From NCBI GenBank assembly GCA_000934665.2, contig KZ538535.1, forward strand, positions 62,001-118,086: DNA of 56,086 nucleotides. Direction: 5' to 3'. Both the position numbers and the translations under genes were made by a program. This document shows positions 4,078-49,651 of the stretch, piece after piece (within the stretch, counting starts at the first letter, position 1; each line of letters starts with the position of its first letter). Under the pieces are notes generated by a model. That model did not search any database. It saw nothing but the letters and a program-made list of their open reading frames with translations, and was not told the origin of the DNA. This stretch comes from Catajapyx aquilonaris. Its lineage: Eukaryota.

Positions 4078-4260
4078 CACCGAAGCAGGTTGGCATAGTG
4101 GATAAGGCGTCCGACTGCTAATCGGGAGGTCCTGGGTTCGAATCCCGGGGCCGGCAACCTTGACCGTGGTTTTCTGTGGTTTTCCACGGTCTTTCTAGGA
4201 TAATTCCGGGGTCGCTTCCGTATAATAGGCCACAGCCGCTTCCTTCCTTCCCTATCCTTG
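4078..4260 (+). mobile_element. tRNA-derived SINE, family A, 3'-truncated copy
   Basis: A box TGGCATAGTGG, anticodon-like arm CCGACTGCTAATCGG, B box GGTTCGAATCCC; highly similar to the inverted copy at 31352-31612. Confidence 0.8.

Positions 4261-9359: not shown

Positions 9360-9360
<1 letters not shown>

Positions 9361-9428
<68 letters not shown>
9361..9428. repeat. (ACT)n microsatellite
   Basis: Perfect trinucleotide run. Confidence 0.95.
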
Positions 9429-10363: not shown

Positions 10364-10426
10364 TCTTCTTCTTCTTCTTCTTCTTCTTCTTCTTCTTCTT
10401 CTTCTTCTTCGTCTTCGTCTTCTTCT
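10364..10426. repeat. (TCT)n microsatellite
   Basis: Near-perfect trinucleotide run. Confidence 0.93.
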
Positions 10427-11256
10427 GCTTCTGCTCCTGCTCTCGTTCTCGATCCCCCCCCCCCTCCCCAATCCCACCCAGAACTTCTATCTTACCATCT
10501 CCTTTTCAAATCCCGCATCCATCACTCTGCATATAAAAGACACCCTGCTTTAGCTCTTAAATAATCAATTTTTCATTGCCCCCCAGAAATACGGCTAACA
10601 AATTCTAGATCCTTTTTGGAGCCGCATCCCCAACCGTACATTGCTTTAAATGAGACATCTGTTTCCCCTCACCCAACCGAGGCCCTTGATTCCTATCCTG
10701 TTCGGACACTATCAAGGTGCAACACATCAGCTTCTAATGGCACTTAGGGTGTGTCCACAAAGACGTGCTACAGTCCCAACCGTATTAAGAGGCCCACGAA
10801 ATGGAAGGGAAGAGTTCATTATAGTGACACCTAGAACGTAACGGCTAGGGCTGTTGATGGCTTGAATGTGGTACCTTTTTGCTCAGGAAATGACTCTGCA
10901 TGTTACCCTCACCCGGTGGAATTCAGAAGTAATGGCACGTTTTCCAGTCCTTATAATACACCGTGTGGTTCGCGATAAACTCTACAGGCAGTATGATATG
11001 ACGGTTACTTTTAATCACCGATTAGGCTACACCTTTATACCAGGAGGGGGTCTTTTCAACCACCTGCTGGATATAAATTCACGGCTGTGATACTATCATT
11101 CCCTCCGGATAAGATTCACTATTTCGAGAATGTAACTAGCAAAATTCGCGTAGTAAGTACAGTAACCTCTAAGGTGAAATGGAGCAGTTCCATACAATTT
11201 TTTTGATGAAATTTTGATGGTCGCTTCCGGAAACACAATACGTGTCAACATGTATA

Positions 11257-20285: not shown

Positions 20286-20286
<1 letters not shown>

Positions 20287-20357
<71 letters not shown>
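20287..20357. repeat. (AAT)n microsatellite, possibly the tail of a minus-strand retroposon
   Basis: Perfect trinucleotide run. Confidence 0.93.
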
Positions 20358-20358
<1 letters not shown>

Positions 20359-21300: not shown

Positions 21301-21452
21301 TTCGACCCTTGGAAGCTGTTCTGCTTGGCGACCGGAAGCCCCTTTCGGCCGAGAGAGAATACAATATCATCTGCCAAGCAGTGGGTGCTCGACCCCCAGC
21401 GGTTATGACCTGGTGGAAAGGCAGCACCCGACTTAAGAGCAGCGTTGAAACG
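21301..21452 (+). CDS. Sidestep-family exon: N-half of Ig domain (probably Ig3), [51 protein letters not shown]
   Basis: Pyrimidine tract + cag acceptor ending at 21300; ACG|gtaaga donor; Ig C..G.RPPA..TWW motif; phase 1 to 0. Confidence 0.92.
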
Positions 21453-24400: not shown

Positions 24401-27400
24401 CAGGCAGGGGAGGGCGGTTGGCTGGGGGGACATCCGAGTTGCCTCCCCTCCAGCCCTCTCTTATAATAAATTCCGAACTTTGCGTTTAATTCAATTAGGA
24501 TTAGGCCTAACACCCCCTCTCGCGCCGTCAGACTTGAAAGGAGATTACCGACATGACGCCGCACCCTAATCATGTGCGCCTCTGGAGAAATCACACCCAG
24601 TTTAAGGTTTGACGACGAGGCTTTGGTAATATTGCACTGGTCAGGATGGAGCTTCGGTCCTGATTTTGCTTCCTCTGTTTCCGTTTCATGATGACTGGAC
24701 CTGTGTTACTGAACGATCAGAGTCTGGCCTTTCACTGAAGCAGTTTTATGCACAAAATTTCGATACAGTCGCAGTGAAGTAATATTCTACTAGAAACCAG
24801 CTGAAAGTAGAAATCCTACACTCTTGTAATCTGAGAGATCTGGCCTCCCTAGGTCATCATTCTCTCCTGACAGCGCAGTCACCCAGAATCGTGGTTGTGG
24901 TCCAACAACCTATTTATTAGTCTAGCCTCGTCTACGGCTGTCTCATGACTGATTACAACCTCAAGCTTTCCTACCAGGTCCACCCCTATAGACACCCCAG
25001 CCATCTAGTGGGGGGTGTCACAATACCAACTGCATCAGTAGACATTGGAGATGAGGTCAGCTTAAACGCTTCCATGATTACGTCAGTAACCAAACAATGT
25101 AAGACCACCCCGGGAAATATAGTGGAAATGAACTGGATGCCAAATACGGACTATATGACCGTGCGTGTTGTCGCAATGACATGAAGCCAGCTGTACGTTA
25201 TTATCGTAATAGCCGCCACACGTATGGCAACTAACGAGAAAATGTCCATAAAAGAGCAACACCGGCGGAATAGCGCACGGCCGCATTCATTATTTACTTA
25301 GCCTTTCAAAGCTGGCACTAACCAAATCGCGCCATGAAGAGATTTAGCATTATGGTTGGGTGGGTGAGGGTTAGTAACCGTTTCCGAAATATTATGTATT
25401 TTCGGGAGTCCGCCCAAAATCAAACCTACCACCCTCATCAATTCTGCCGCAACACTGGATACCATGTTTACTCCCCATTGAGTACCCCGCAGTTCTTGTC
25501 TACAATATAATGAATAATAACTTGCTATCCGGTCAGCCTTGCAATGCTGTAATCACGCAACACAAGAGAGGCTCTTAGGTTAGCGGCTCGCCAGGATAAA
25601 AGTCCTACTTGCCTGAAATTCAGAACGATCATATTGCTGATTCAGTCATACCAGTCATAGTCGTCGATAACTGTTCTGTTCATATATTATTGTGTAATAT
25701 AAAACAAAAATAATAATAGCCTTTTATATGAGCCTGCGACATCATACGGACAGCGACCTCAGGCTGGGCGTTGCATGGCCAATCAAATCTGTCGCGGATC
25801 AATGTCAGCACCGACTCTTGTCGCAATATGACGCAAGTGGTGGAGCACAAAAAAACACAAATCCCAGCTCTTGCTTTTTTTTCCCCCCGATGCCAATCCT
25901 CGCCTTGACCAAAGTTTCTCGGTACTGTACCATACAGCACGGCATGGATTATGCCCCATAAATTGAGCCCCAAGGTTTGAGGTAAAAGTCTGGGCGGAGA
26001 GCCTCTTTACATGCCTTGTCACACCCACTGATCGGCGACAGTAGCTTTCGGCGTCGGAATGGCCATCGATAAAGAAAGAGGCGGATACTTTCTGGGTACT
26101 TTCCTCCCTCCCGCTTCCATCGCTCTCCCCGTCTGGCTGAAATCCGGGTTCAAATTGTTCGCGTCTATCAGGCGTGCCTCGGATGGGGGAAGAAGAAGAA
26201 GAAGACGGGGAGGGGGTGGGCATCATAAAACAAAAGTGCGGGAAAATGTAAGAAGAAGAAGAAAAGGTCGCTCCATGTTGGAAAAGCTTTCGTTGTTGCA
26301 CTCCACTCCCCCTCTTCCTTCCCATCCTCCTATCCTATCCATAAAAATAGTGCTGTGCAAACTGAATCGTGATGAGCAAGCCAGACGGAATGAGGCTTCA
26401 CTTTTCTAACGGGAGAGGAAGAGACTCCTGACATCACTTGTTCCTGACAGCCCCCTCCTGCAATCGTAAATCATCCCACAATATATTGATCTTCACTACT
26501 TAAAGCCTGGATCCTCACACACATTTTTTGCATAACCCATATTAAATTTTGCAACAATGGTCTTTCAGATCAGCGGCGATGGGAACATGACGACAAGCAA
26601 CCTCACCTTCATCCCGTCGATGGAGGACAGTGGCAAGCATTTGTCTTGTCGAGCAGAAAACCCAATCATTCCATCCAGTGCTACTGAGGACAGCTGGAAA
26701 CTGGACATTCATTGTAAGTAGCCAGATATAATTTTAATCGTGCATCTAATGGTATCTAGTCGCAAAAAAAAATACTTACCTGGGATTTAAAGAACTTGTT
26801 AAGAGCATTGAAAAAAATGAAGTTGATAGGTGCTTGATGAAATCCGCCTAAAGCCCTTTTTTATTCCCTGGCCCCCAGGACCTCCGGAACATTCCGGAGA
26901 AATAGAGTAGATATAGACGAGGCCTTGTTGAGAATATTATCAGGCAGTAGGATCCCCGTGGCAGCAAATCCCGGAGCCCAAGAGAGGAAATGGTCCTTGT
27001 GTCAGCTCCATTGAGTGTAGGAAGAAGGCCTCGGCTTGCAAAAGGGAAAGGAGTGGAGGAGGTGGTGGGTGGAAGTGAAGGAGGGGGGGGGGGGGTAGGA
27101 AAAAAAAGGTGAAGACNAACTGGGGCCAAGAGCCGTAACGGGGGGAAACAATGCTGCAAAACGTGAGTGGAGACTAGCGAGGGAGGAAAATTTGGTTTCT
27201 TCTCTCCCTGGCCCCCCCTCACCCACCTCTAGCCTGATTCATGATTATGGATATTGTCGGCAATGCTTCTTATTGCCCCAAGCCAACGAGCCCCGGAGTT
27301 TTATTTGGCAACGTCCGACGAGCGTTTTGCAGTCGCGCTTTAAATTCACTTTTCCTCTTCCATCACCTTTTTCCTCGCCGCACTTTTTTGAAGCCTCTAA

Positions 27401-33400: not shown

Positions 33401-36400
33401 TCTCGCTCGTCAGCAGCTAAAAAAGGCAATTGCGTCGCTCGGTTGCCTGCTTGGATGAGGTTAAATCAACAAAAAAAAAGCGAGTAGGGGGTGGAGGGGA
33501 TGTGGGAGAAAATGTTCTCGACTCCTCTCTCTAGAGGGAAACGAGAGAGGCTTGGACCAGGGAGGTGGAATGGTCTCTTCACTTCAATTTGCGGCCTAGA
33601 AGAACCGTCTCAGCTGGACAATGGTCATTTCAAAATCAGCCGAATCCAGCCTTTTCCTCGCTACCAAATATGCAAACTGCGTTGGCTCTCACCTTCAGTA
33701 TGCACCAGAATTCCGAATATTATTGCGGCAAGGGGCAGATGCAGACGCCCGCCGGATTTTGGGAAGTTGCTCCGATGCGACGGTAAAATTAATCACAACT
33801 TTTGGGGGGGGGGGGGAGGCCCATTGCAAGGAAGGCTTGATCCTGGTGATGGGGGTATTGGCGTCTGGAAAGGGGGATGAGGCTGGCAAAGGCATTAACA
33901 AGGTGTGGCAGTGCAGCCAGAGTAAACGCGGAGTGAATTAAGAATGCGGCAAGGAGCGTATAAACGTAGCTGGGCATTTTCCCTCCTCGTTTTCACAGAG
34001 GGATGATAATTATTCGGAACAGGCGAGGAGAATTGAAAGCGTCTTCTATTCAAAGCGTTTGGAAATTCCTCCCCTCCACCTACTCTCTCTAACTCCCTAG
34101 TCTTTCATGAAGGCTCCCTCATTACGGTAATTTGCTTTCATTTAACGGCTCTGTACATTTGGGATGAGTCTGAAATATCCTTCGTTTAGTGGACCCCGTG
34201 CTGCCCCCATCTGCCATCACTGCTTACCCCTAGCTCATCCTGTTCCTATCCAACTACCATCAAGAAAGCTTCTTTTCAAGTCGGCCCTCGTTTCAAGTCT
34301 TCTACCCCATTCCGGAGGATTCGAGTCGCTTTTTAACGCCAGAGCAAATTATGTGTACTTTTCGGCATAATTATTGTTTCATTCAAGCTCACTGCGCTTG
34401 TCCACACATTGGAGTTGAAAGAGGGCTGGGGGGGAGGGGAGGGTTGCGCTTGATGTCAAATGTTGAATTTTTCACACTTGGGCGTGGCCGTCCGTGAGTA
34501 AAGCAGGTAATAAACATGTTGAATTTGCAGAGCCGGCGGCGCTTCTCATGTGATTCATTTGAAGCATGCCGATTGTCGCCGGATTTTCCAAATTGCAAGC
34601 ACATCATATGCCACTCTAAGCACAAAACTTTCGGCCTTGTAGAAACAAGCGGTGTGGGTTTCATAGCAACCGAATTTACACAAGGCACTCACTTGAAGAG
34701 AAGAAAAAAAAGCTCCAAGAGTAGCAATTTTCGGAATTTTATTGTACTGAGCTCAGCTTAATTAATCATCTCCGGGACCAATACAAGCGAAGGCCTTTCG
34801 GCCTATAAGATCAACTGCAAGTGTTTCCGTCTACTTCCTCCTTGGATAAAATAAATGTTAGCCCAGCAGGTTCTTTCCGCAAAGTAAACTGAGCAGCACC
34901 GTATCTAGGGCCTTTTGTGTCCGAGAAAAGAATGAAAGGCCCCCATTCATTTAGTCTGCATCATCGCTATGTACTTGAACACTCTTAGGCCTTGAAGACG
35001 GAACGAAGCCCTCCTTTTCCTTCAATCCACACCCTCCCCAACTATTGACTCGTTTGAGATTATTAACTAAACAAGCTGTGGTGTACTATATCGTAGGTAT
35101 AATCGTACAACCCGGGGAGTTGATTGTGGATCGCGTGATATAGGCCTAGTTTAGTTGAAACCGTCGCTCTCCGCAGCTTGCCCTTTATTTACCTCCTTTG
35201 ATCTTCAACAGTTCCTATCTGCATTTCGCAATATCTACAGTGGGAGTGCACCTACCCGCCGATCCACTGCTGTTCAATCAATATTATTTCTATCAATAAG
35301 GCGCCACGGGTCGACAACCTCCATGAAATTTTATATCCTCCGTTGTTAGATGCGGTACCGCCCACCACGTAATGCACCTTTCAATTTCATGATCATAATG
35401 GAACAAAAAAAAATGTAATTCACCAATACAAATCGGACCAAAATATACTGCATGAACTAAACCCTTATCGATCGTTCTTTTCAGATGTACCCATCGTGAC
35501 TCTGGATCTAGGAAGCACTCTGAATGCTAGCAACATCCGTGAAGGTGTCGACGTGTACTTCGAATGCAGCATCAAGTCTAATCCATGGGTCTACAAAGTC
35601 AACTGGAGGCATAACGTAAGTTCGCAACTCTGCATAATTATGTCAAGTCGAGATAAACCAGGGGCTAAGTATGAATAAATTAACGTGCTTGGATCTGGAT
35701 GAAGGATCACAGTGACAAGCCATTTGAGCTAGACGTTCCTCTTTTCCTCCCCTTTCGCAGGGAATGATGCTATCACACAACACCAGCGCAGGGATAATCA
35801 TCAGCAACCAAAGTTTGGTGCTACAGTCGGTGTCGAGGAGAAGTGCAGGGCTCTACACTTGTGTCGCCAGCAACCGTGAAGGCGATGGAGAAAGTAATCC
35901 CGTCTACTTGGATGTGAAATGTAAGCTCATCAGTCTCTGCTGGCTCTACGTCAGATCTGACGTCCCACTGGAAAAGCGCACACTGTATACATGATGAAGT
36001 AGCTCAAAAGTCATTGCAGCAACCCTTTTTTTTCAAAGTGTATAATGTAATGAAGGGCCGCGACCAATGACGTTCTGGCAGCGATCCAAAATAATCCGAC
36101 TCCACTGCCCAGCTGAGAATCCGGCAACCTGGAAAGCTCATAGACGTAGTGCACTTGCCATCTTTTCCCCCGTGGCCTTCAAAAGCATATGAACGGACCA
36201 AATTTTGGGAGATTACGTGGTCCAGGTTCATTTTTACGCAACGCACTTGCTGAGGAATAGGTGATTTTTGACTCGCTTATTTTCAGCGATGTATTGCACA
36301 TTCGAATGTAATTACTAAAGAGAGCGAAAACTGGAAAAAAAATCAAATTTTTAAATAGGAACGTCGCTGTCTTTTGTGCTGCATGTACTTCACTGACTCC

Positions 36401-39400
36401 GAAGTCTTCTCATTAGCCTATCATTATGCGCGTGCCTGCAGGCGGTCATTTTGCCACAACATCCATTAACTCCATGAAAATTCACCCGCTACGCCTCAAG
36501 TACCTAGCGGACAACGCTGTGGAGACGCGGTAATCTGTTATCGTACTTAGCTGCACCGCACTCGCATTTAATTAAAACTTAATAGGCTTACATATGCAAT
36601 ATATCAAAGGTCAACATCCACGCAGTCAGCATGATTCTGAGCGAAAAACCCTTGATTAAATGACCGATGTCGTCTTGCTACCATAGTTTTAGTATCATTT
36701 TCATAAAAGCTCCGTGTATATAGTCAACTCAGAAAGTTGTTTTTTTCACCAGAGGTCTCCCTAACCGCTCTTCTCCTTCATGGTAGTGTTAGTCACTTTC
36801 CCAAAGTGTGTGGATGGACCTCTGCCATGACTCCATCTTCACTCCAACCCAGCTCATTTCTCCTACCCCTTTAAAGACCTTTCTGGGTATCTTAGCGTTT
36901 CCTGCCCGTAGACGTCCTTTTACATCGCTTATGGCTCCCTTGACTCTCCACCATCTTATGGTTATGTTCAAGTCGGGCTAGCGATGGCCTAACTTCCAAC
37001 CGTTCCGCCAATTCTTATCAAACGTTACCGCAGTAAGGGTACAGTACACCCGACCGGTAACTTCCTCCAATTCGGTTGGAGATACAGCAGAGGGAGCTTC
37101 TTGCCTGCAAAGCTTCCCAAAAGAGAGGGTCAAGGGCCTTACAATTCATAGCAGGGTATACGTATAATAACACAGTATAATAACATCTGAAATTGGGATG
37201 TGGAAGGACATCGCATCTAAACGTTCAATTTCCCCTGGACGGCAAGTACCTTGCCCTGGGCCTTTAATAGCCTATTATTCTCCCAAAGCATACGAAACCG
37301 TTTGGGAAATCTCCCAATCCCAGCTATGCAGCATCCTGGCCTCTAGGCAGACCGCATCAGGCACATCCTCAACCGTAATCCGCGATAATACCGTGTAAAC
37401 GCGTGCTGACGGCGGCCATCTCGGACCACGATTTCCCCTAGGGCCCTGCAGGTGTTGCCTATCGTCGGTGAATGTTGATCGATTTTTGATGATGCATGTA
37501 TATGTCCACAGTCGCACCGATCTGCAAGCAGAATCAACAGAAAGTGTACGGAGTGGCCCGCCAGGAGTCAGCACGCATCGCCTGCGAGGTAGAAGCCAAT
37601 CCGCAAGACATCCTCTACAGGTGGAAGTTCAACAATACCTCCGAAACGGTCGACATGCAGCAGTCCCAGTACACAGCCGACCGAACACGAAGTGTCATCA
37701 CCTACACGCCCATGACCGAAATGGACTACGGAACCTTACTGTGTTGGGGGCATAACGAAGTCGGGGGCCAAAAGCAGCCGTGTGTGTACCACATCATCCC
37801 TGCAGGTAGGCATCAGACACGACAGGCCCAGCCGCAGCATCATTGCAGCCAGGGAGGTCATAATAACGCAATAAGTGCATGAACTGCAAAAGAGCGGGAA
37901 TTCCCCGGGTGGAAACGGGCAGCGGCTTTCATCCAGGCTATCGAATGGGTTACAAATTAGCGGCGTAATTGTGGAGGCAGCAGATGGACAGCAGCATGCT
38001 GAAGTCAAATGGGAGCTTATCTGCCATTCAACAACACGGGTCCCAGAGTCAGAGGGTGGACCATGCAAACGCCCTGAAAATCAGAGCGCGGCAGGAACAG
38101 GCCCTGATGGGTTTTTTGAGATGAAACGACCAGTTGCATTTCCAATTCACTTCATCTGCAAACATGGCTCTCAATTAGCAAATATCACTTGGACAAGGCT
38201 TTTTTCCTGATCAAGTATTTATCCGATTGATGGCATCCATAAAACGGGGCGGCGCTAGTGGTGGCTTCTATGATTTACGAAGCGGTTTGCCTGGGGTATT
38301 TGGAGGGCCTTGCTAGATGGCCCATCCGGTTAAATTAGGATCGGTCAAGGCAATAGCCACTCCCCCCAAAACGGCCATTTTTTTTTTTGCTGTTCTGTTT
38401 ACTCTCCTGCTTTCTTTCATCTCTCGGTCAAATGCACGCGGGGCTACCCGCTCATTAGCCAAATTAAAACGAACAGAACGGTCTCGTTTCCCGGGATGAG
38501 CACTTCTGTTTACCTCTGTAAATGTGTAAACGACTGAGGGCGGTTGCCATATATTATGCAGGGCTAGGCCTAATTCGGAAAAAAATATTAAATTAACAAA
38601 TATTTTTCAGTCGCGTAAATTGTATCGCCCTCGGTTGGGAGAATACAGTGCATTCGCTCCACCCAACACAAAGTGTCTCCAGGGGGTTAAATGAACGCTT
38701 TGACTAACCATGGAGAGACAAGCTTGTTACACCTCCGGGGGAATCAAATTGATTGCCAAAAGCACATGCAAACCGGTTTGGAATAATTCTCACGAGTTCA
38801 ATGAATTTGTGGCACACCTACACCTGAAAAATTAACAATAGTATTTCCCATCAGGCTCACGCACGCACATAGTATGCATGCAACAATAGTTAGGGGTGCA
38901 CGGTGGTCAGGTGGTTAATCTAATGGCCAGCCGAGCGTCATGTTAGGACTCGTCACCTTCGATTTGTCCGCCATTTTTCTGATTTTCTATACTGATTGAC
39001 CTGTTCTCAGGGTGACTATGAAGTGTGTGGAAATTAATAAATAACTTAATAACACTCAGAAACTGAATCATTAGTTGAAACCGTTGCATTTTCAACTGTA
39101 TCATGAAACAAAAATATACAGTCGGTAGTCAGTAAATACACCCTCTAGGTCCCTCCAGGCTGAGAAAAATCACGCTGGTCGTTTCAACACATATGGCAAT
39201 GTCAGAAAGGGCTTTGTTTTGGAATCATATTAGCTGTGGGGGTTTTTTTTAAGGCGGTAGGTGAGGGGAATCCACCAAAAATCATAATTCATTCAATGCC
39301 CTATGTTATCGGAACCATTTTCAAAAATTAATATGTACTAACGGTAATCAATTCGCTGGCCGAATGATCTGTCCCTGTCACACGTTTCCAAAACTGGAAC

Positions 39401-40210
39401 ACTATTCGTCCTGCTCATCTAACTCGAGGGGGTAGGGAGGGGGGAGGGGTAAAGTTGGCATATGCTTATTCAATTCGCCTGAAGTCTCCATCTCGTTCCA
39501 CCTCTAGAAAGAATTTTTATCAAAAGNNNNNNNNNNNCTCTCTCTCTTCCCGGGTCCCAATATTTGACATTTCACTAAAAGTTGAAGCCTGTAGGAAGAA
39601 GGGAAAAAAGGCAGCTTGTGGAAAGAACTTCGCCAACTTGGTATTCATAGCCTCATTTTTTCTACCCCCTTTTTTACGCCAACGTTAGACTCTGATACTT
39701 AGTGTTTCCACCCACTACCCCACCCCTTATGAATCTCTAGAGGAGCCCCACAAAACACCTTCACACATTTTTTTAAAAGAGTGTTCCTTGATGAAGCTGC
39801 TACGTTGGTAGTTGGCTAGCCAAGAGTTATCATCATGATGACCTGTGGCTTTTGACTGAATCTCCCCCTTTTTTCATTAGGCAAGCCCGACCCCCTTCAC
39901 AACTGCTCTATTTTGAACCAAACGGCTGAATCTCTTCATGTGGAATGCAATGAGGGCTTCGACGGAGGCCTGCCTCAGAGTTTTATCATGGAGGTGTACG
40001 ACCCCCAGAAGCACCAGTTGGTCTCCAACGTCACCAGCCGAAGTCCCGTCTTTACTGTCAGTGGACTCGAATCCGGGTTAGGATTCGCTATCAATCTCTA
40101 CGCCATGAATGCTAAAGGCCGCAGTGACAAGGCCACACTCTATGCCTACACTCTCAAGGCTGCGGAGAAGAGAACTGGTAAGGGAACCGGTAAGCATCAT
40201 CAGCCATTTC

Positions 40211-40285
<75 letters not shown>

Positions 40286-42202
40286 GATTATTATTATAAG
40301 GCACTTGAAGAGGAATTTTGTGATAATGGACATGTATGGTCATGAGAGGTACTGGAATAGCTTGGAGTTAATTTAATTTTTCACGCTCATTTAACCTTTA
40401 CCAGTTTCTGTTCCTGGCGAAGTTGGGGGCAAAGTGCGGGTTCTAGTCAAGGACTTTTCGAATCTGGGAATGGTGTTGGGCAGCTTTAATAATATTCGAA
40501 TTACTACTTAGGTAATTTTCATTTTTTGGGCTTGACAACGGACAGACAAGGCTTTGTTTATATTTTTTACTGGATGTCCTGTGGGCTAGCGCACTTTTAA
40601 CAGGTGCTCCCGTTGTACACAACATACACATTATTAAAATGCAAGCCGGCTGAGAAAAACTACCTAATAATTAAATTTATGAATTTAAATATTATCAACA
40701 TCTCACAACAAGATAACAAATTATAACACAGTGTCACATAATCTCAACCTTTTGACCACTGCATGTTAAATCGAACTAACATGCGCAAATTAATAGTGTT
40801 AAAGAAAATATGGACATATAATATCGGCACTGAGGCCTATAACCAAAAGTACTCGAGATGAGGCAAAGAATGGGCAAATGTTTAAAAAGTGATAAAAATG
40901 AAACGCTTCCTTTTATAATTGCATATTGAACAATATTGACTTATTCCGACCGTTTAATTCTATATCCTTCACACCAGATATATGAGGCGCCTACTCTCAC
41001 TGAACTTACGAACCAGACCAGCTGCATTGGATAATTTGAATTAAGGTAATGTTGCCCCAAAAATGCCGGATTCAAATCGAAGTAATGGGAAGAGGCTGAC
41101 AAATTCTTCAAATTGGCATGTATTTTGTTATCAATAAAATCCATCAATAATTTCGTCAATATTTTTAATTATTTTTTCGTATATTTTTGTGTTATTCCAA
41201 TAATCCCATGATCCTTTAAAAAAATCCTTCCATTTAACCTGTTGAGGGCCACGAGCCTCATATGAGGGTCTGCGGATGTTTGAATTTGGCGCGATAAAAT
41301 ATGCACAGAGAATTCGAACTTTGCGGTTCTAAATTCGGTTCAATATACTCCTGGCATCTCTTGGATGGTGGCTAAACTACCATGACGCTCCCACAATGCG
41401 CACTGGACGGGAGCCAAGCTGAGTCGAACATGCCAAGGACACGCGGCTGCCGCGTCATCTTTCATGTAAACAAACGCCTTGAGTACAAGGTGTCTGGTAA
41501 AGTTGGACCCTTGAGAGTTTCTCATAGTATAGTGTTGTGGTAATATTATGCAACCCATAGATTAATAAGGTGATGACGCAACCACAATAACAGTGTATAG
41601 TGACTATGTAATCTCGGTAGGCCTATCGACGTTCTGAGAGCCAGACAATCGTAAAAAAATATTTCTGGGACACCCTGTAGATGAATTTTTTCCGTCATTT
41701 TACATTCAAAATATTAAATTTGGCGCGAAGTTGTTATTCATTAATGTCACTTCTACATCAAAATAAAAAATTAAAAAACAACCAAAAAACAAAAAAAAAA
41801 AAAAAACTGGCCCTCAGCAGGTTAAGCAATCATATTTCCATCATTCTCTATCCCAAATATGTCGGCTTATACAAACACTTGGGAAGGCGAAGTGGCGCTG
41901 TGAAACGCACGCGCCCACGGATGGAAGGGTCCCGGTTTCGATACCAAGCCCGGACATTCCCCCCTTTCATCTCGTGCGGAGTTCTGTGGCATCTCCGGCT
42001 TCGTCTAGGGTGGGATTTCCGATAGACGAACGACCCGGGGGAGCTCACAAAATGTCCACAGCAAATGACATTGCACATCCCCTCCCAGTCACCTTGCCCT
42101 TGGACCAAGGGCCAATTCTACATTGTCAAATTCATGTAGGCTACCCATGTGACAAATAAAGGTCTGTGCTCAGACCTCTGAAGAGGTAGGCACTATACCC
42201 AA

Positions 42203-42264
<62 letters not shown>

Positions 42265-45200
42265 CGCAAAAAAGACGGCCGAAAATGCTTTTTCAGCAGA
42301 AACTACAATTAAAAACTACCTCTTGCGTCCTTCTGGCGAATATTGAAAATAATAATCTACTAACATATATTGGTTGCAATATTGTGAAACAGCGCTTAGT
42401 AGTTAGTACCGATAAACATGCATCACATGATACAATAAGGATCATAACTTACTAATATAGATGATATGAATAATGTCCCGAACGTTGTCCCCTAGAGCAG
42501 GCTAAATAGTCACACATGTCTTGCTTGTTCCCACGTTGGTTGTAGTCGAAAATGTGTTCTATATGAAGTCGCTATACTGTATAGGCCTACAGTGTGCGTG
42601 CATGACGTCCTTGCCCCGCTGTCACTTCCACCCAAATGCGACAAGCACGTTAATTGTTCCATGTCCATTTTTTCAACGCTAACGTGTGTTCCTTTGTGCA
42701 AGGGACACATTTATTAAAGTCCAGCCATTGTCCTCTCACAGTCAACAAATCCTTACGAGCTTATGGGACACTTTTGTTCCTTGTCACTGTCATTGCACTA
42801 CAGGAAATGTGACAATCTTAGAACAAAATATGGCCATACTTTGCTCACACAGCGATTAAACAAGCTGCTCTACACTAAAATATTTAGAAATTTTTGTGGC
42901 TTTTCCTGTCAAGTACACAGTATCTCAAAAACAATTACGAGGGGTTATTTAATGCTTACTTTTTATACTAATACATCAGCCTGGATCGTCTATAAAGCTT
43001 ATGTATAATTGACTCCGAAACCATGCATAATTACTCCTTTATTTATATCAGTTTCATGCAGTTTGTTATACATAGTACACAGCAAATTATACTGTACACT
43101 ATTAGTAGGCAAAAATAAATATTTGAATACACCTCGTAATAACGCAGTCTTAATTATACAAATGTTGATTGAGGGCCGGTGTAACATTTTCACCATTTAC
43201 TCCAAATTAAACCCTTGGATAGACGCCAGCAGGAAATTTTACCTCTCATTCAAACTCTTCACCTTATTGATTAAAATCTCACCCAATGGAAGGGAAAGGC
43301 TGTGACAAAATGTTATCAACACTATCTACCGGCGCTTTAAAAAAAAACGACCTCTCGCGTAATTCAATCTTGTTTATGAACTTTTCTGTTTTTTGTGACT
43401 CTTGAGATATGTTGTCAGTCATTATTGGAGTCAATTACTACCATCAGGTGGGAAGTCCAGATTCAAGTGTCTTTTTAATGTAAAGCCTGTGGGCCTGTGT
43501 CTGACACTGGCAGGGACTCGTGTAATTTGAGCTAATCTCTCATTAGCACTCAATTACTCTTTTTTTGTCAAACGGATCATTGAAAGAGCAAAGGGTCATG
43601 AGTGGCATCCAAAGTCATGTGTCTTTGAAGTCATGTAAAAGTACGGTATAGTTTAGGCGAAATGCTCAAGGTAATACAAGTAAGTTCATCAATAACGGAA
43701 TGTCACATCACTAACTTGTAAGTTATAGTTGCATCAATGCAAATTAAGAGCAAGTCTCAGAAATTGTATGGTAGCTCTGCGACTTTCTCTTGCATTATTT
43801 ATACAATCCCCTCCCCTCTAAGTTGATCTTATAAGAGTGACATCCGACTTCGTATTCATAGAGTTCAACAAATGGAGACATTGCTGGAGAAGTTCTTTGT
43901 CCATATAGTCGCAGACTGAGAGAAAAAGCACATGATTTTTTTTTTATAGCGATAAGAGCCCTTGGATTAAGCAGGTAATCTTCAGTTGAACGGATTTAAA
44001 CCCGGGCTGGCGCCCTTTTCGCACAAGATCTTGTCCACGTGATGGAATCGCTTTTGGTCTCTTGTGATGCTGTTATCTGAAAATCGAATTTTTTTAAGGG
44101 CAAAGGGCCCTGCTCTTTCCGGTAAGCTTATCAGTTTCTTTTCTCACGCGCCTTTCGCTTTCACGCTGTGTAAACGCATATAACTTTACACTTAAAAATG
44201 TAATCAATTTTCAGGGTGTCCAATTGCTGACTGCAATATTATAAGCTTAGAATTTCTGCTTTTTGCCAACTACCTCTGTGGGTCTTGTAAAACTTCTTAT
44301 TGTTGTTTCACAAACTTTCACAGCATCGACTCCAGCCATGCTGCCCATAACGCCCATCCTGGGTGTCCTGATTGGTGTGGTGGCTGCTCTAGTCCTGGTA
44401 GCAGTCATCATAGTGGTCATAATGCGCATGCGCACCCATGAAGAGGACAAAGAGCCCTGCGAGGGAGAACCGTGCGACAAGTCCAGCATCCCCTTGAAGA
44501 AGGACATTGACGAAGTCATCGACATGGATGACAAAAATCCAGATATTATCCCCCACAGCAGTGGTAATGTCCACTGTCCACATGACCATGGTCAGGTTAT
44601 AGGTCCTACGTAAACCCAAAAGGTTGCCTCATCGCGGAATTGTTTTATTTCTATTTGGAGTCTCAGGGCTTTTCTCAAGTCCCACACGACATGTTTCTCA
44701 CTTGTAATGGCTGCAATGAAGCGTTTCAATTTAGGCATATGTGAGCAACAATGAGGGTTGCGGGACTTCAGGATCCTCTGCCAGTTGGAAACCCTATAGC
44801 CTCTGTAGTTTAGTGGCAGAACAAACACTCTTCTGGAGTGTGGACCTGGGTTCAATTCCCAGCAGGGGCACATGGGTTTCGGATAATTACCGAAATATTA
44901 GGCTAACTGGTCAAACACTTCTCAGATGTTTTTATAGAGCTGAGAAGCGAATTTTTGCGATTCGAAGTCACCCGGTAGATAATTTTGCAGTTATTTTTCT
45001 TATGATGTGGCAACCTAGTTCTCGGCCAAATTCATTCCCCTATTGGTTTACTAAAATGGCGCATACAGTAAGTCATGTTGAGACTAAAGCATAACCTCAT
45101 GTTAAAATGCTCTAATTATTATAATCATTTAAATTATTTTAAAAAACCTGTATGCCTGCAACAGGCAATCTCCTGCATTTAGTTAATGCTTGGTAAATAG

Positions 45201-47876
45201 TTAATAGAATAATATTTTTTCCCTGGACAAAACTATATATTCATGACATTTTCAATGATATCCTGACATCGTACACGGGACAGCAAGGCAGGGTCATGTA
45301 GGCCTATTTGCAGAAGGTGCCTTGTGTGCGAATTTTGAAATATAATAACACAGGTTAACAACTTTTTTGTTGCATTGATGCCAGACATTGTTCTTACCTA
45401 ATTCGAGGGTGCTGAATCCAAATCTGATGTTAGTTTTTCTCTGTAAGCGCTAGATTTAGAACTGTGGTTCATTCCTTTGCCTATTCTGTACCTATGCTCG
45501 TGTAAAGGCAAAGTGGCCCTTTTGGGAAGATGGCGCGATGCTCTATATAGCGAGGTTGGTTTAGCACATGTAACACATTCGACATGAAAGGGCTAGGGTT
45601 ATGATAGATCTAAGCCTAATTCTCAAGCTAACCCTAATGCAAATAGTAAGGGGTGTCCTTTATTGCGATAATCACAAGTTTCAAATTGCATGAAAACTAG
45701 AGCTTGGAGAGGAAAACGGATTTCAGATTTGAAATCAGCGTTGAAAAGATACTTGGAATCAGTTGAAATATCTCATGCAGCAGATTTTGTTGTTGTTGTT
45801 GTTGGTCTGTGTAATCAATGCAAGATGGGCTTCCATGTCATTATTTTGTTGAATGTGCTTTTGTTTTATTTCTTGAGTTAATACTGTGTTGCGCTGAAAA
45901 GTCTTCAGAGGAAGGGAAGGAAGAGCATGCCTCAACAACCAATTTAAAGAGAAAGAACAAACCTGACAAGTGTGGCCTGATTGCTTCTTCTGGCAGGTCT
46001 CTTCCCTTTAAACTGGTTGCTGAGTTAAATAATTAATAACTTCTTCCCTTTCACTGACGACTTGGGCAGGTTACGTAACATTTTATCTGTATAGTACATG
46101 CATACTAGAGCATCTTAACTTCTCAATCATTCGCAAGTCGTAGACGTAGAGGAATCCACCCTTAGGCAGAATATGCTGAAACTAACTGCAAATCATTGCC
46201 TAAAGTAAACCGGGAGTTTATAAATCTGGAATTTTCTATCGCCTTTCCGCTTTTATTTGTGGAATAAGCTGCAAAAAAGTTAGAATTCCGCCAATATGAA
46301 TTACTGCATGAGCCCCCAATATTAAGCCGCAGAGTAATATTTACCGCTTCATCTTTCTTTTTATGACACCAAATTTCCTTTCAGAAGCAGACTACCACGA
46401 CCCGGGAGACAAAGCTTTTGAAAAAATGAACAATGCTCCCAATCAGCTATACGAAAACGTGCCTCAAATCCATCCTTTCAGCAACCGCTTAGATAGTACT
46501 TATGAGAACGTCAATAACATCAGGAACACACCAAAAGTGGTGAGCTTGTTGTTGCACCCTACTGCATGTGCTGCTGTAAGTGCCTGCCCATTTGTTTAGA
46601 AATACTAAATTTCTCTTAATTTTGAAGCATAACATACGTAATCATCCACAGAATGAAGAAATCACCTACGCTGAGCTAACCTTGCCGAAGAACAACATGT
46701 ACACACAACCAGTGCGGAGGCAGCAGGAACCCATAGTGTACGCCCAAATTGACATAACCAAGCAAGTGCCTCCCGAATTCACCTGCAGTTCCCATCCTCG
46801 CCCTGAAGAGGAAGAGCTTCACAGCACTGCTGAAACTCCGCTGATGAATAGCCACCGGGAGAGCACGGTATAGAACCATGCTGTAACGCTTTGCTGTAGA
46901 AATAGCAAAGGTATATTTGTGATTATTGTACTTGTTGTTGCACTAATGCACATTTCTCTTACAGTGCAAAACAAAGATATTATTGCTATTCATGATAGTG
47001 TAGCAAAGAAAGTAACACAAATCTAGTCATCTCTAGATCAGTTTACTCACAATAAATTATTTAGAGTTAAAATAATCAGCTGTATGCCTAAAATATATTG
47101 GTTAGACTCTGTATTTGATAATCATACGAGAAGTGTTATGATTGCTTTTGGACTGACCACGAAACAGAATTACACAAGTGCATGTGAAATGTCGAAAAAA
47201 TTTATTGTCACTCTCACTCTCATGAACAATAGTTCAGGCACATTTAACATGAAAGCCTGTGCATTTTGGGTTTCCAGATGCTGGACTGTCAAAAGTTATA
47301 ACACTCCTCTGAATAGAAATCAAGTTTTATTACTAAGCTACACTTTGCACTTACTAACCTCCTATACTGTATACAGGGAAGGGGAAAAGCCAGGCATAAA
47401 TGCCCTATTATCTGTTCATTTTTTACTGAAGCTCTAGCTTTTCCCCTTCCCTCATGTCACATCTCATATCACTGTCCGCGCTGTCACTGTAGTATGGCAC
47501 ATTACACACACATTACTAAGTTTATGGATCAGTAAGCCAGCTACATGCTGTGAGCCCTATGTTTAAAAATCCAAGTTACACATCATTGATTATGGTATAT
47601 GCTTGTCATGTAGGGTGCATGCTTGCACAGCACGCCACTGCAATAAACACTCAAGTGCCAAGTGTCAAGTTATTCCCGACACAGCCACCAATATCGAGAA
47701 TAATTTGACTATTTCCTCAAACACTCAAGCTTTTGTGACACCTCCTAATATCCAGTCTTTCCTCATGATTTCAGATGAGGGCCACTACTTCAGAAATAGT
47801 GGAGGACTCGCCTCCAACACCACCTCCACCACCCATGCCATCTGCCCCGAAAGTGGTGGTTGCCACGCGCTTCTGA
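21301..47876 (+). CDS. Sidestep-family / nephrin-like Ig-superfamily single-pass membrane protein, 5'-partial multi-exon gene: join(21301..21452,26569..26713,35485..35615,35761..35920,37512..37805,39881..40177,44324..44563,46385..46539,46652..46867,47775..47876)
   Basis: All nine introns are GT..AG and the phases join into one open frame of about 630 codons: 3 Ig + FN3 + TM + NPDIIP + cytoplasmic tail. This architecture and these motifs are typical of insect Sidestep paralogues. Exact orthology not determined. Confidence 0.93.
22027..22958. mobile_element. Non-autonomous hAT element
   Basis: CAGGGGCGGA..TCCAGGCCTG ends, subterminal GGCGCCC repeats, perfect 8-bp TSD ATTTTGCA (22019-22026 and 22959-22966). 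Confidence 0.85.
23450..23650 (+). repeat. Dispersed repeat homologous to the interior (about 7312-7650) of the MULE-like element
   Basis: Shared blocks GAATGTGGCAGGGG(C/T)AGGGGCACGCTG, CAACCTACCCCATGACCT and TAGGTAAAAGTG. Confidence 0.7.
26569..26713 (+). CDS. Sidestep-family exon: C-half of the same Ig domain, [48 protein letters not shown]
   Basis: tctttcag acceptor, T|gtaagt donor, D.G..LSCRAEN Ig F-strand motif; phase 0 to 1. Absent from the ORF track because it is short. Confidence 0.92.
30279..30472. mobile_element. PIF/Harbinger-like MITE
   Basis: TAA on both flanks; imperfect TIR AGACACGTTTACATGTGA / TCACGTGTAAACGCAGCT; internal (GAAGCGGAGC)3 and inner inverted repeat GTAACCAATATTGTTTGAGG / CCTCAAACAATACTGGTTAC. 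Confidence 0.7.
31352..31612 (-). mobile_element. tRNA-derived SINE, family A, full-length with (TAAA)n tail
   Basis: Reverse complement of the 4078-4260 copy with A/B boxes, extended 3' region and (TTTA)n on the + strand. Confidence 0.82.
31688..31964 (-). mobile_element. tRNA-derived SINE with V-domain-like core
   Basis: A box TGGCCGAGTGG, B box GAGTTCGATCCC; core GCGTGGGTTTTCTACGGGTTCTCCCGTTTCCTCCCAC; AT-rich tail; 18-bp TSD AAGTTGTATCATATAATA (31670-31687 and 31965-31982). Confidence 0.85.
32454..32772 (+). mobile_element. Non-autonomous Helitron
   Basis: Sits between A and T; 5' TC, (GTCT)n microsatellite near the 5' end, 3' hairpin CCCGGGCAACGCCGGG followed by CTAG; no TSD. 5' end approximate. 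Confidence 0.78.
35485..35615 (+). CDS. Sidestep-family exon: N-half of next Ig domain, [44 protein letters not shown]
   Basis: ttttcag acceptor, AAC|gtaagt donor; I.EG.DVYFEC...NP motif characteristic of the family; phase 1 to 0. Confidence 0.95.
35761..35920 (+). CDS. Sidestep-family exon: C-half of Ig domain, [53 protein letters not shown]
   Basis: Long pyrimidine tract + cag, T|gtaagc donor; SNQSLVLQ and G.YTC.ASN.EG motifs; phase 0 to 1. Confidence 0.95.
37512..37805 (+). CDS. Sidestep-family exon: last Ig domain, [19 protein letters not shown]...[28 protein letters not shown]
   Basis: ccacag acceptor, G|gtaggc donor; AP.C and [14 protein letters not shown] motifs; phase 1 to 1. Confidence 0.95.
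39881..40177 (+). CDS. Sidestep-family exon: fibronectin type III domain, [35 protein letters not shown]...YAMNAKGRS...AAEKRT
   Basis: ttttcattag acceptor, G|gtaagg donor; C.EGFDGGL.Q.F and N.KGRS FN3 motifs; phase 1 to 1. Confidence 0.95.
40211..40284. repeat. (CTA)n microsatellite just downstream of the FN3 exon donor
   Basis: Perfect trinucleotide run. Confidence 0.95.
41238..41821. mobile_element. piggyBac-type non-autonomous element
   Basis: TTAA on both flanks; TIR CCTGTTGAGGGCCA / TGGCCCTCAGCAGG (13/14 match). Confidence 0.8.
41881..42261 (+). mobile_element. tRNA-derived SINE, family B, with (ATT)n tail
   Basis: Degenerate A/B boxes; head and body homologous to 52498-52710 (GCGCCCACGGA, TTTCCGATAGAC, CCCGGGGGAG.TCACAAAATG, TTGCACATCCCCTCC); ends in (ATT)n. 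Confidence 0.75.
44324..44563 (+). CDS. Sidestep-family exon: transmembrane helix ([23 protein letters not shown]) and juxtamembrane region ending [12 protein letters not shown]
   Basis: tttcacag acceptor, G|gtaatg donor; 23-aa hydrophobic stretch followed by RMR; NPDIIP motif; phase 1 to 1. Confidence 0.93.
44797..44871 (+). pseudogene. Degenerate tRNA-like sequence or solo SINE head
   Basis: TAGTTTAGTGG A box and GGTTCAATTCCC B box with partial acceptor-stem pairing; poor anticodon arm. Confidence 0.45.
45349..45811. mobile_element. Non-autonomous DNA transposon, superfamily unassigned
   Basis: CACAG..CTGTG ends with imperfect TIR; subterminal inverted blocks GCTGAATCCAAATCTGA (about 45412) and TCAGATTTGAAATCAGC (about 45723). 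Confidence 0.55.
46385..46539 (+). CDS. Sidestep-family cytoplasmic exon, [52 protein letters not shown]
   Basis: ttcctttcag acceptor (in-frame alternatives ending 46387 and 46390), GTG|gtgagc donor; phase 1 to 0; two YENV motifs. Confidence 0.85.
46652..46873 (+). CDS. Sidestep-family cytoplasmic exon, [13 protein letters not shown]...IVYAQIDI...[12 protein letters not shown]; ends V-stop at 46873 if unspliced, or splices at 46867
   Basis: atccacag acceptor, phase 0; ITYAEL, IVYAQI and ETPL motifs; ACG|gtatag is both a weak donor and Val-stop. Confidence 0.87.
   Translation, partial: NEEITYAELTLPKNNMYTQPVRRQQEPIVYAQIDITKQVPPEFTCSSHPRPEEEELHSTAETPLMNSHRESTV
47775..47876 (+). CDS. Probable alternative terminal coding exon, [33 protein letters not shown]
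   Basis: Pyrimidine-rich tract and tttcag acceptor; phase 0 matches the 46867 donor; 34 codons ending in a PDZ-type ATRF; AATAAA at 48051. Confidence 0.72.
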   Translation: MRATTSEIVEDSPPTPPPPPMPSAPKVVVATRF

Positions 47877-49358
47877 CATGAGGACCGAGTAGGATTCCAG
47901 GGCTTTAGCCGATCGTGAGCAGGGACATACGTACGACACGCCCACCAACCGCCGCCTGGTTTCGACAAACAAACAAAATTGTTACCTATTGCAAGAAATA
48001 GTGTTATTTTCTTAAGTGTTGCACGCCAGGGTTGAGTGCGTCAGTGCCAAAATAAACATTGGGGCTGCATGGAGAAGGAAGTTGGTCAGCTGCTGGCGCT
48101 TCCAACCCAGACTATGAAAATAAATGAACTTTTCATACCGTACCATACTATGTATGGCAATGGGTGCGCAGGGATTATAAAGAGAGAAAATCCTCCTCCT
48201 CCTCCTCCCCCCCAATACCCCTTTCCTTCCCCCACCTTTCCCATACCGTCCCGATCGCCCCTAATGCCCCTGAAAGACACATGCTGTACACTATGTAATG
48301 ACTGTGAATTTAATTTGTTTGTTTCTTTCATGTAAATATTGACCATGTTACGAGCCCACATCTTCCCGTCTGGTTAAGACGACCTTCCCGCCAAACTAGA
48401 AACAGTCATCCATCAGGTCCGTTTTGTAAGTTGGGAAGTGCAAGGTGCATACATGAGAGACCGTCTTCATTCTGCCAAGGACACGCATCCAGAGGGCAGA
48501 GGAAGTACGAGCGTTTCTCCAAGATTACCATCAAGTTATGTGCTTCGCGGACAAAATGACTTCACGACCCGTTTGGTGAATTGTGGGCTACACGTGCAAA
48601 AAATACAGCGCCATTTTTATGTCCGTTGAATTGAGTGACATGCATCGTCTGGCATTGACCTAAGTAATGATTTTTATGGCTATTATTATGATAGCATTTC
48701 ATAAGCACAAGATGGTTTTTGGTATGACCATACCAATACCTTTGAAATGATGAAAGCAGGGTTTCTCACTTTTTGATATTTGTACCGAACCTCATTCCAA
48801 AACGTAGTTTCACAATATTCAGTTGTTTTGCTGCCAAGGACCGAAGTGTCTGCAAACTGGTAGAATTACATGCTGCTTACTCCATCATGAGCTTGTCATC
48901 CACCAAGTTGCGTTGAGAAGGGCATCTTGTGCTTCTGAAGTCATCAGTCAATGGTATGACATGTTCCCTTATTACAATTGTACATAACAGTAAAAAGGTG
49001 AAAATAAGACATGAAATGAAATGTGTCCTTTCCTTTGAGGGGTGTGGCGGAAAAAAGTGATAACCCTCAACCCTCAACTGGGAATCACAGCCATGATATT
49101 AAGAGAGATATAGGCAGTCAGAGATAATAAATCAGACTTGACTATAAAAAGAAGAGAAGAAGATTGCCTGGGTGGATCCGAGGTGAACCGCAAAGAACAG
49201 CAGTCAAATATTCTGGGTATGGTTTCTTGTCAGTTTTTTATGTGGGGAAAAAGAAAGAGACACTTTCAGGTGCTTGAGCAATGCAGTTGTCGGCATTCTC
49301 GAGGACATCATCTCATTGCATCACAGAGGCAGTGGGTTATGTTTGAATTTACTTGCTG

Positions 49359-49651
49359 AGGAAAGCATGGTGGTCTGGTGGTCACGCCACTGGCCAGCCA
49401 AGCGGGTGGCCAGGGTTCAAATCTCGTCCCCGTCACCTCTGCTTGGCCGGGTCTTTTTCCGCTTTTCACCCGACATGCCAGGGCAGAATTGCACTCCCTA
49501 CTCTGCCCAGGTCTAGGAGAAAAGGTCTGGTGTATTTCAGAAAGTCAGAAATGACTAATTACAGTGCCCTCCCTTGGGAACCTCCCCTGCCCCCCTAAAA
49601 GGGCTCTGCCCTATCACGGGGTAAATTTTAAAAAATAAAAATAAAAATAAA
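49359..49651 (+). mobile_element. tRNA-derived SINE, family C
   Basis: A box TGGTCTGGTGG, B box GGTTCAAATC, tail CCTATCACGGGGTAAA + (TAAAAA)n; 13-bp TSD AATTTACTTGCTG (49346-49358 and 49652-49664). Confidence 0.85.

Follow-up and report, generated by a model that had tools for sequence, protein, structure and literature searches.

How one gene comes to end in two different peptides, each resembling a ligand of PDZ domains, and by which splice sites it would choose between them, is the question raised by a stretch of 56,086 nucleotides (nt) from Catajapyx aquilonaris (assembly GCA_000934665.2, contig KZ538535.1, positions 62,001 to 118,086 of the forward strand), which was analysed at its full length and is referred to below as the window, numbered from its first letter. 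An earlier note, made from the letters alone, had proposed that a single weak splice donor, here called D1, toggles an axon-guidance or synaptic adhesion protein between an ESTV and an ATRF carboxyl terminus, with ESTV arising when the donor is left unspliced and the message is polyadenylated after an AATAAA at 47051. The analysis described here keeps both ends and arrives at a different switch, in which two competing donors, D1 and a second one, D2, probably share a single acceptor (47775) and thereby give this species two tails.

The assignment to adhesion proteins was borne out, as the nearest proteins and the trees identify the gene by its sequence as an orthologue of Sidestep-VIII (Side-VIII). 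Nine exons from 21301 to 46867, each bounded by AG and GT, join into a frame of 596 residues without a stop, the product of which comprises three Ig domains, a fibronectin type III (FN3) domain, a transmembrane helix as well as a tail. Its nearest proteins are from insects, at 70-72% across the Ig3-FN3 core, and two database records in that nearest group bear the name sidestep VIII; among the best solved-structure matches of the orthologue P0007 are Side-VI, Side-IV and Side-VII. In a tree of 47 Ig3-FN3 rows (a chosen subset, in which the group label of P0268 and P0409 is a default and no description of their ends) the window falls into one clade with Aedes A0A6I8U0C6 (supports 98/93 and 99/99), which is Side-VIII in Table 3 of PMC13521578. 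A tree of 64 rows, left after 14 near-duplicate or partial rows had been dropped from 78, recovers the same clade apart from the other Side paralogues, with a support of 99 in the Shimodaira-Hasegawa-like approximate likelihood ratio test, the position of the window within the clade not being the same in the two trees. Every TRF end in both trees lies within this clade, including 21 of 21 TRF-ending rows in the larger one, and the paralogue clades end mostly in E-S-x-V/I.

Side proteins are described as having five Ig domains, one FN3 domain and a transmembrane helix, with a PDZ peptide at the C-terminus (PMC5578738, PMC12258940, PMC10084454). Ig3 to Ig5 lie within the window. Farther upstream the contig carries Ig2 and the last part of Ig1 (G000:C957:30506-30742 and 24435-24560), and most of Ig1, the domain by which members of the family bind Beat proteins, is absent from it, the best candidate being on G000:C962 (61%), which has no link to the contig. 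The FN3 domain is followed by the transmembrane helix, as the definition of the Sidestep family asks, with the fn3 match falling under the curated Pfam cut-off just as it does in the orthologue P0090. The cytoplasmic tail with a PDZ-ligand-like end, here ESTV or ATRF, is likewise a feature of the family (PMC12258940).

The coordinates given earlier for the last two exons, the donor, the acceptor, the intron and the AATAAA all hold. The exon 46652-46867 ends ACG/GTATAG (the slash marks the exon-intron boundary), and its unspliced reading gives HRESTV followed by a TAG stop at 46871-46873; the intron from D1, in phase 0 and 907 nt long, closes with the acceptor TTTCAG at 47774, after which a last exon of 33 residues keeps the frame and ends KVVVATRF with a stop at 47876. 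This acceptor is the only one of 1168 plus-strand YAG acceptors giving a phase-0 peptide of at least 4 residues that leads to a TRF-stop end. A class I-like end ([ST]x[VILF]) occurs by chance at 53 of these 1168 control acceptors, and at least one AATAAA, a hexamer also present at 47642, 48051 and 48119, occurs in 46% of 3000 resampled intron copies (in 13% within the first 200 nt), so that the PDZ consensus and the hexamer, both being near chance, each say little when taken alone. The last exon also fits the orthologue consensus P-R-x-V-T-A-T-R-F, and the agreement extends to positions that played no part in selecting the orthologues: of 39 distinct tails, 26 share its Ala at -3, 30 its Val at -5 and 26 its Pro at -8; at -7, where 23 of the 39 have Arg, the window has Lys.

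Transcript data come from one public run, X1, in the form of Logan contigs, the kind of run not being on record. Contig 3 of this run (671 nt, depth 4.55, no mismatches) contains two GT..AG joints, 46539^46652 and 46910^47775, the second of which skips 864 nt and uses D2 (AAG/GTATAT), a donor overlooked in the earlier note that follows D1 after 43 nt and the ESTV stop after 37 nt. D2 is the best consensus match (7/11) among the 58 GTs in 46652-47774, and RNA spliced from it, as seen in this contig, codes for the ESTV end and is without the intron that carries the AATAAA at 47051. Both exons are single-copy in the assembly (G000), so a processed copy in the assembly cannot explain contig 3. X1 has no cover at 46911-47772, a gap that counts only because contig 3 joins across it.

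Since contig 3 joins 46910 to 47775, the ESTV RNA that is seen is spliced rather than read through to the AATAAA at 47051. Of the two outcomes between which the earlier note had proposed to decide, a junction at 46867^47775 or read-through, contig 3 thus shows neither, with 46910^47775 in their place, and it is the read-through that suffers from this. An ESTV mRNA formed mainly by skipped splicing and cleavage after 47051, with D2 a minor or cryptic site, has in its favour the presence of the hexamer and the fact that relatives have no obvious D2, the termite-like intron described below having an AATAAA 283 nt after D1, so that a similar route is possible there. The sole spanning contig, however, joins from D2 across 47051, the hexamer is at the chance level given above, and a mayfly-like locus has no AATAAA in the 544 nt examined, which makes this route unlikely as the main source of the ESTV form.

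The D1 junction, as opposed to the D2 joint observed in X1, is deduced from conservation. D1 matches 5 of 11 consensus positions, the gene's other eight donors ranging from 5 to 9. A scan of metagenomes yielded 9 loci from 139 candidate stretches, of which 8 are near-identical and termite-like and 1 is mayfly-like, and which therefore represent two independent lineages; the codons AGC ACG/GTA TAR are present in all nine. Two of the loci, L035 and L037, yielded a phase-0 exon 3.2 kb downstream that opens with a Val codon and closes with VTTTRF and a stop. Between the window, L037 and L040 the Thr and Val codons at D1 are identical (2/2) and none of the other four-fold codons of conserved residues in that exon is (0/10), a difference of about 1 in 66 by an exact count made by hand and post hoc, and one that would be predicted where coding sequence doubles as a splice signal. 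Less weight attaches here to the Val codon than to the preceding G, since a paralogue in the same genome also ends GTA TAG. Among 14 distinct long tails, 8 have a residue other than Val after [RK]ES[TSAM], as splicing at D1 predicts; the remaining 6 keep Val, perhaps because the TRF exon itself begins with a Val codon, as in L035 and L037. From the in-frame TRF last exon, the D1 codons in nine of nine loci and the six species in which both ends are on record, we infer that the ATRF form is made in C. aquilonaris as well.

Were D1 dead in this species, the ATRF frame would be a relic in the 3' untranslated region (UTR) and the protein would always end in ESTV. The low score of D1, at the bottom of the range of the gene's donors, and the sighting of D2 alone are what such a loss would leave behind; the frame is nevertheless intact and ends in the clade consensus, the synonymous bases at D1 are the same as in two distant lineages, and the silence of X1 is uninformative because assembled contigs drop rarer alternatives, so that a dead D1 appears improbable.

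The comparison of orthologous C-termini shows both ends to be conserved, with six species, Cloeon dipterum, Cacopsylla melanoneura, Macrosteles, Homalodisca, Halyomorpha and Graphocephala, having both on record, of which Halyomorpha (HTTV) and Graphocephala (KESSV) differ in the short end. Of the nearest group's 118 new proteins, TRF terminates 39 and ESTV 2, and most of the other ends are hymenopteran (54 APTT, and 13 TPTT, TATT or AATT). Long multi-exon frames on Logan contigs of 2-4 kb end in RESTV (P0003, P0057), ATRF (P0102) and NATRF (P0263), those ending in RESTV being 622 and 819 residues long on contigs of 2.1 and 3.6 kb. In the beetle records examined the motif is altered (to RDTS, RDSS or RENN, for example) and a short ESTV form is missing. 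The mosquito and blowfly records end in TRF, save for four Aedes isoforms with another last exon, and differ from the window in showing no [RK]ES motif in the last 200 residues. In 13 stretches of G000, outside which most paralogue tails lie, one ESCV paralogue end and no TRF exon were found, and a degenerate ES-x-V-stop pattern gave 270 matches over G000 against 312 in the control. In the mayfly RefSeq X2 isoforms (P0062, P0063) a third donor, 30 residues upstream in the same exon, is joined to the TRF exon; the window has no strong equivalent of it.

These dipteran records would agree with a reading in which contig 3, a single contig of low depth that retains upstream intron sequence, represents splicing noise or an RNA still being processed, with ATRF as the sole functional product, as in the fly and mosquito records. 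This we consider very improbable, given that most other Side paralogues, one with ESCV in this genome among them, end in E-S-x-V, that the multi-exon Logan frames end in RESTV and that Halyomorpha keeps T-T-V despite changed residues upstream of it.

It has to be noted that a number of observations weigh against a two-donor switch of this kind. The junction 46867^47775 is absent from X1, although in one run with one spanning contig this is not evidence, for the reason already given, and X1 also holds intronic pieces, 46296-46384 (89 nt, on contig 3 itself) and 45174-45412, so that contig 3 may be partly processed RNA or reflect an internal start. D2 has no clear counterpart in relatives when the GTs within 150 nt of D1 are checked (none above 6/11 in the termite-like loci and none reaching 6 in L040), and relatives may make the short form by another route. 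The long end alone is on record in Ischnura (4/4), Hetaerina (2/2), Neocloeon (2/2) and Lycorma (2/2), and the short end alone in D. citri (4/4 records reaching the tail). Bees, ants and wasps have ..PTT-like ends without either motif, and hence neither ligand is needed in every insect. The orthologue records are mostly gene models whose RNA support is not visible, and some ESTV records may be annotation artefacts, because any phase-0 read-through starts with Val.

In the model with two donors, use of D2, as in contig 3, leaves GTA TAG in the mRNA, the protein ends in E-S-T-V and the last exon becomes 3' UTR; use of the weaker upstream D1, whose bases are also those of the Thr-Val-stop codons, would remove the Val and the stop and add the 33-residue ATRF exon in frame, exchanging the family-wide E-S-x-V end for the T-R-F end specific to Side-VIII. 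With a single 3' UTR common to the two mRNAs, the choice would be made by competition between donors and not by polyadenylation. In mammals a distance of about 50 nt between stop and junction avoids junction-dependent decay, the relevance of which to arthropods is uncertain; the D2 junction, 37 nt after the stop, lies inside this distance.

Both ends meet the class I consensus X-[S/T]-X-hydrophobic with S-T-V and T-R-F (PMC2553845), which agrees with the earlier note. By eye, neither fully fits any of the 16 PDZ sub-classes of that paper, a point against the proposed switch of partners, ESTV being one change from sub-class 1d (ETXV) and ATRF fitting sub-class 1b at positions 0, -1 and -2 without its Glu at -3. 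PDZ domains are reported to read up to seven positions, with eight specificities at position 0 (PMC2553845), and while PSD-95 favours an acidic residue at -3, PDZ1 of NHERF1 selects Arg at -1 (PMC3788737). ESTV has this acidic -3 residue together with Val at 0, and T-R-F has the Arg at -1 together with Phe at 0. A further objection comes from the argument that NHERF1 has a pocket fitted to Leu, with which larger residues would clash (PMC3788737); the Phe-ending tail of 5-HT4(a) does bind NHERF (PMC2644495). Because the two ends differ at positions that PDZ domains read, we lean slightly towards ESTV and ATRF recruiting partly different scaffolds.

The two-donor splicing itself would also be compatible with both forms binding the same PDZ proteins, in which case the switch would alter only the length of the tail, its added motifs or the handling of the mRNA. 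Both ends are generic class 1 ligands (PMC2553845), PDZ binding is promiscuous (PMC3788737) and the hymenopteran tails do without either motif, all of which makes shared partners conceivable. We regard them as doubtful, however, since mayfly and damselfly at one extreme and mosquito and blowfly at the other still have T-R-F in an otherwise divergent exon, since a mere duplicate of the first ligand would have no obvious need for Arg at -1 and Phe at 0, and since the tails of 5-HT4(a) and 5-HT4(e) pull down different PDZ sets (PMC2644495).

The mouse receptors 5-HT4(a) and 5-HT4(e) are also the closest precedent for the kind of mechanism, in that alternative tails carry different PDZ ligands, with NHERF and SNX27 pulled down by one and CIPP by the other (PMC2644495). 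They differ from the present case in being G-protein-coupled receptors with binding demonstrated by experiment, as against an adhesion protein with predicted ligands, and in that D1 in the window overlaps the last codon and the stop of the short form. Drosophila Dscam1, like the window gene a wiring molecule of the immunoglobulin superfamily, has an alternatively spliced PDZ motif (PMC10084454), which is removed there and exchanged for another here. Among the Side proteins, Side-VIII of Drosophila and its insect orthologues share with the window the clade of the named Aedes Side-VIII and the order of Ig and FN3 domains, transmembrane helix and unstructured tail; one C-terminal PDZ motif per Side is described in the available portions of PMC12258940 and PMC10084454, as opposed to two here. 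[quoted passage not shown]

Splice-swapped PDZ ligands are therefore an ordinary kind of mechanism, as 5-HT4 demonstrates, and it is the specific case and its spread over insect orders that appear undescribed. Alternative Side-VIII forms are already present, unremarked, in public annotations. Many side genes have splice isoforms, which the 2026 Beat/Side survey left aside (PMC13521578, limitations), and no account of alternative Side-VIII tails was found in the literature searched, which was mostly non-subscription; the isoform table in Fig 1F of PMC13521578 may bear on this. Fly side-VIII (CG12484) was in 2017 an orphan Side, expressed in a few neurons of the central nervous system and with no known Beat partner (PMC5578738).

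Taken as a whole, a broader history can be offered only tentatively, in which Side-VIII would have turned the ancestral E-S-x-V end codons into a splice donor and so gained a T-R-F ligand, neurons would choose between a scaffold reading E-S-x-V (Dlg- or Syd-1-like) and one reading Arg(-1)/Phe(0), and mayflies, termites and bugs would have retained the switch, which in flies and mosquitoes would have become fixed on T-R-F. If this were true, fly Side-VIII would signal via a PDZ protein unlike that of other Sides, and a T-R-F-reading scaffold is predicted for dipteran Side-VIII. Side proteins contribute to the choice of synaptic partners, and their PDZ tails have a part in signalling, as shown for Side-IV; an old isoform switch at a Side tail, with its two peptides and two junctions, is directly testable.

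Table 1. Features of the Side-VIII gene in the window (positions as numbered in the window).
Feature	Position	Strand	Basis or remark
Exon, first half of Ig3	21301..21452	+	tblastn; Pfam C2-set; AG/GT ends; open frame
Exon, second half of Ig3	26569..26713	+	tblastn; AG/GT; frame
Exon, first half of Ig4	35485..35615	+	Pfam; tblastn; AG/GT; frame
Exon, second half of Ig4	35761..35920	+	Pfam; tblastn; AG/GT; frame
Exon, Ig5	37512..37805	+	Pfam Ig_3, E 1.7e-7; AG/GT; frame
Exon, fibronectin type III	39881..40177	+	Pfam fn3, E 0.0037 (below cut-off); tblastn, 79% to P0001
Exon, transmembrane helix and start of tail	44324..44563	+	Hydrophobic stretch; X1 contig 44340-44563 stops at its donor
Tail exon	46385..46539	+	X1 joint 46539^46652; tblastn
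Penultimate exon	46652..46910	+	Ends at 46867 with D1, at 46910 with D2; ITYAEL, IVYAQI, ..REST
Donor D1 (ACG/GTATAG)	46865..46873	+	The intron opens with six bases that double as Val codon and stop of the ESTV end
Donor D2 (AAG/GTATAT)	46908..46916	+	Joint in X1 contig 3; consensus 7/11
Last intron	46868..47774 (907 nt from D1) or 46911-47774 (864 nt from D2)	+	
AATAAA named in the earlier note	47051..47056	+	Inside the intron removed in X1 contig 3
Last exon	47775..47876	+	33 residues ending P-K-V-V-V-A-T-R-F and stop after D1; part of the 3' UTR after D2
Proline-rich run of the long tail	47808..47849	+	Bare PxxP and a run of five prolines
Probable shared 3' UTR	47877..48902	+	AATAAA at 48051 and 48119; separate X1 contigs 47991-48216 and 48357-48902

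The proline-rich run of the long tail, for which binding of SH3 or EVH1 domains had been suggested, finds little support in such a role: none of five patterns for EVH1, SH3 and WW domains ([FLWY]PPPP, PPxxF, [RK]xxPxxP, PxxPx[RK] and PPxY) matches it, and of 57 distinct TRF-ending tails no more than 2 contain PPP. The sole matches to the run in a set of 396 long proteins of the Side family are four Aedes Side-VIII isoforms (P0409-P0411, P0416), whose alternative last exon starts near-identically, with 11 of 14 positions matching; in one species and low-complexity sequence, this likeness may be homology or convergence. Common to both isoforms of the window gene are ITYAEL (46661-46678) and IVYAQI (46733-46750), which we take to be similar to ITIM-type sites, and the like of which are found in 74 and 83, respectively, of 114 TRF-ending records. 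Two YENV motifs lie in the exon before the penultimate one.

Control of the donor choice by RNA structure was considered and rejected for D1, which is paired in single folds and no better so than in shuffles of the downstream 120 nt (96, 13 and 50 of 100 shuffles are as paired for the window, L037 and L040). At D2, the most paired of the donors folded (0.77), a hairpin of 9 bp with a 4-nt loop (46889-46910) ends exactly at the donor, a post hoc observation with z of -3.1 in one 70-nt window and of -1.5 and -1.2 in two others. An 11-mer common to the window and the termite-like introns near D1 was likewise discarded, being matched in 5 of 258 control windows and absent from L040, and no Rfam family was found at the splice sites. 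In the Side paralogue G000:C3371 (L002, L010), the tail exon ends ESCV with GTA TAG and has T instead of G before the GT.

Tandem acceptors 6 nt apart (TTTCAG AAGCAG) at 46379-46390 could allow a variation of 2 residues, and orthologue isoforms vary by 1-3 residues. The X1 contigs 47991-48216 and 48357-48902 are separate, and a single transcript through both is a candidate only. Longer forms from Anabrus, beetles and bees (P0001, P0095, P0129 and others) have some 100 extra residues resembling a second FN3 domain, for which no exon was found in the window at 40178-46400. Eight Ig5-like exons are present in G000, and in fireflies and in Schistocerca Side-VIII is present in several copies whose ends have diverged (P0109, P0036, P0207, P0118, P0124; P0112, P0125). 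Within introns of the gene lie a tRNA-Arg(TCT) at 44799-44871, a weaker tRNA-Ser(GCT) at 4085-4156 and trinucleotide microsatellites of 20-25 units at 9360-9428, 10364-10432, 20286-20358, 40211-40285 and 42203-42261. The summed depth of X1 contigs is very high (888) at 49339-49500, consistent with a multi-copy repeat.

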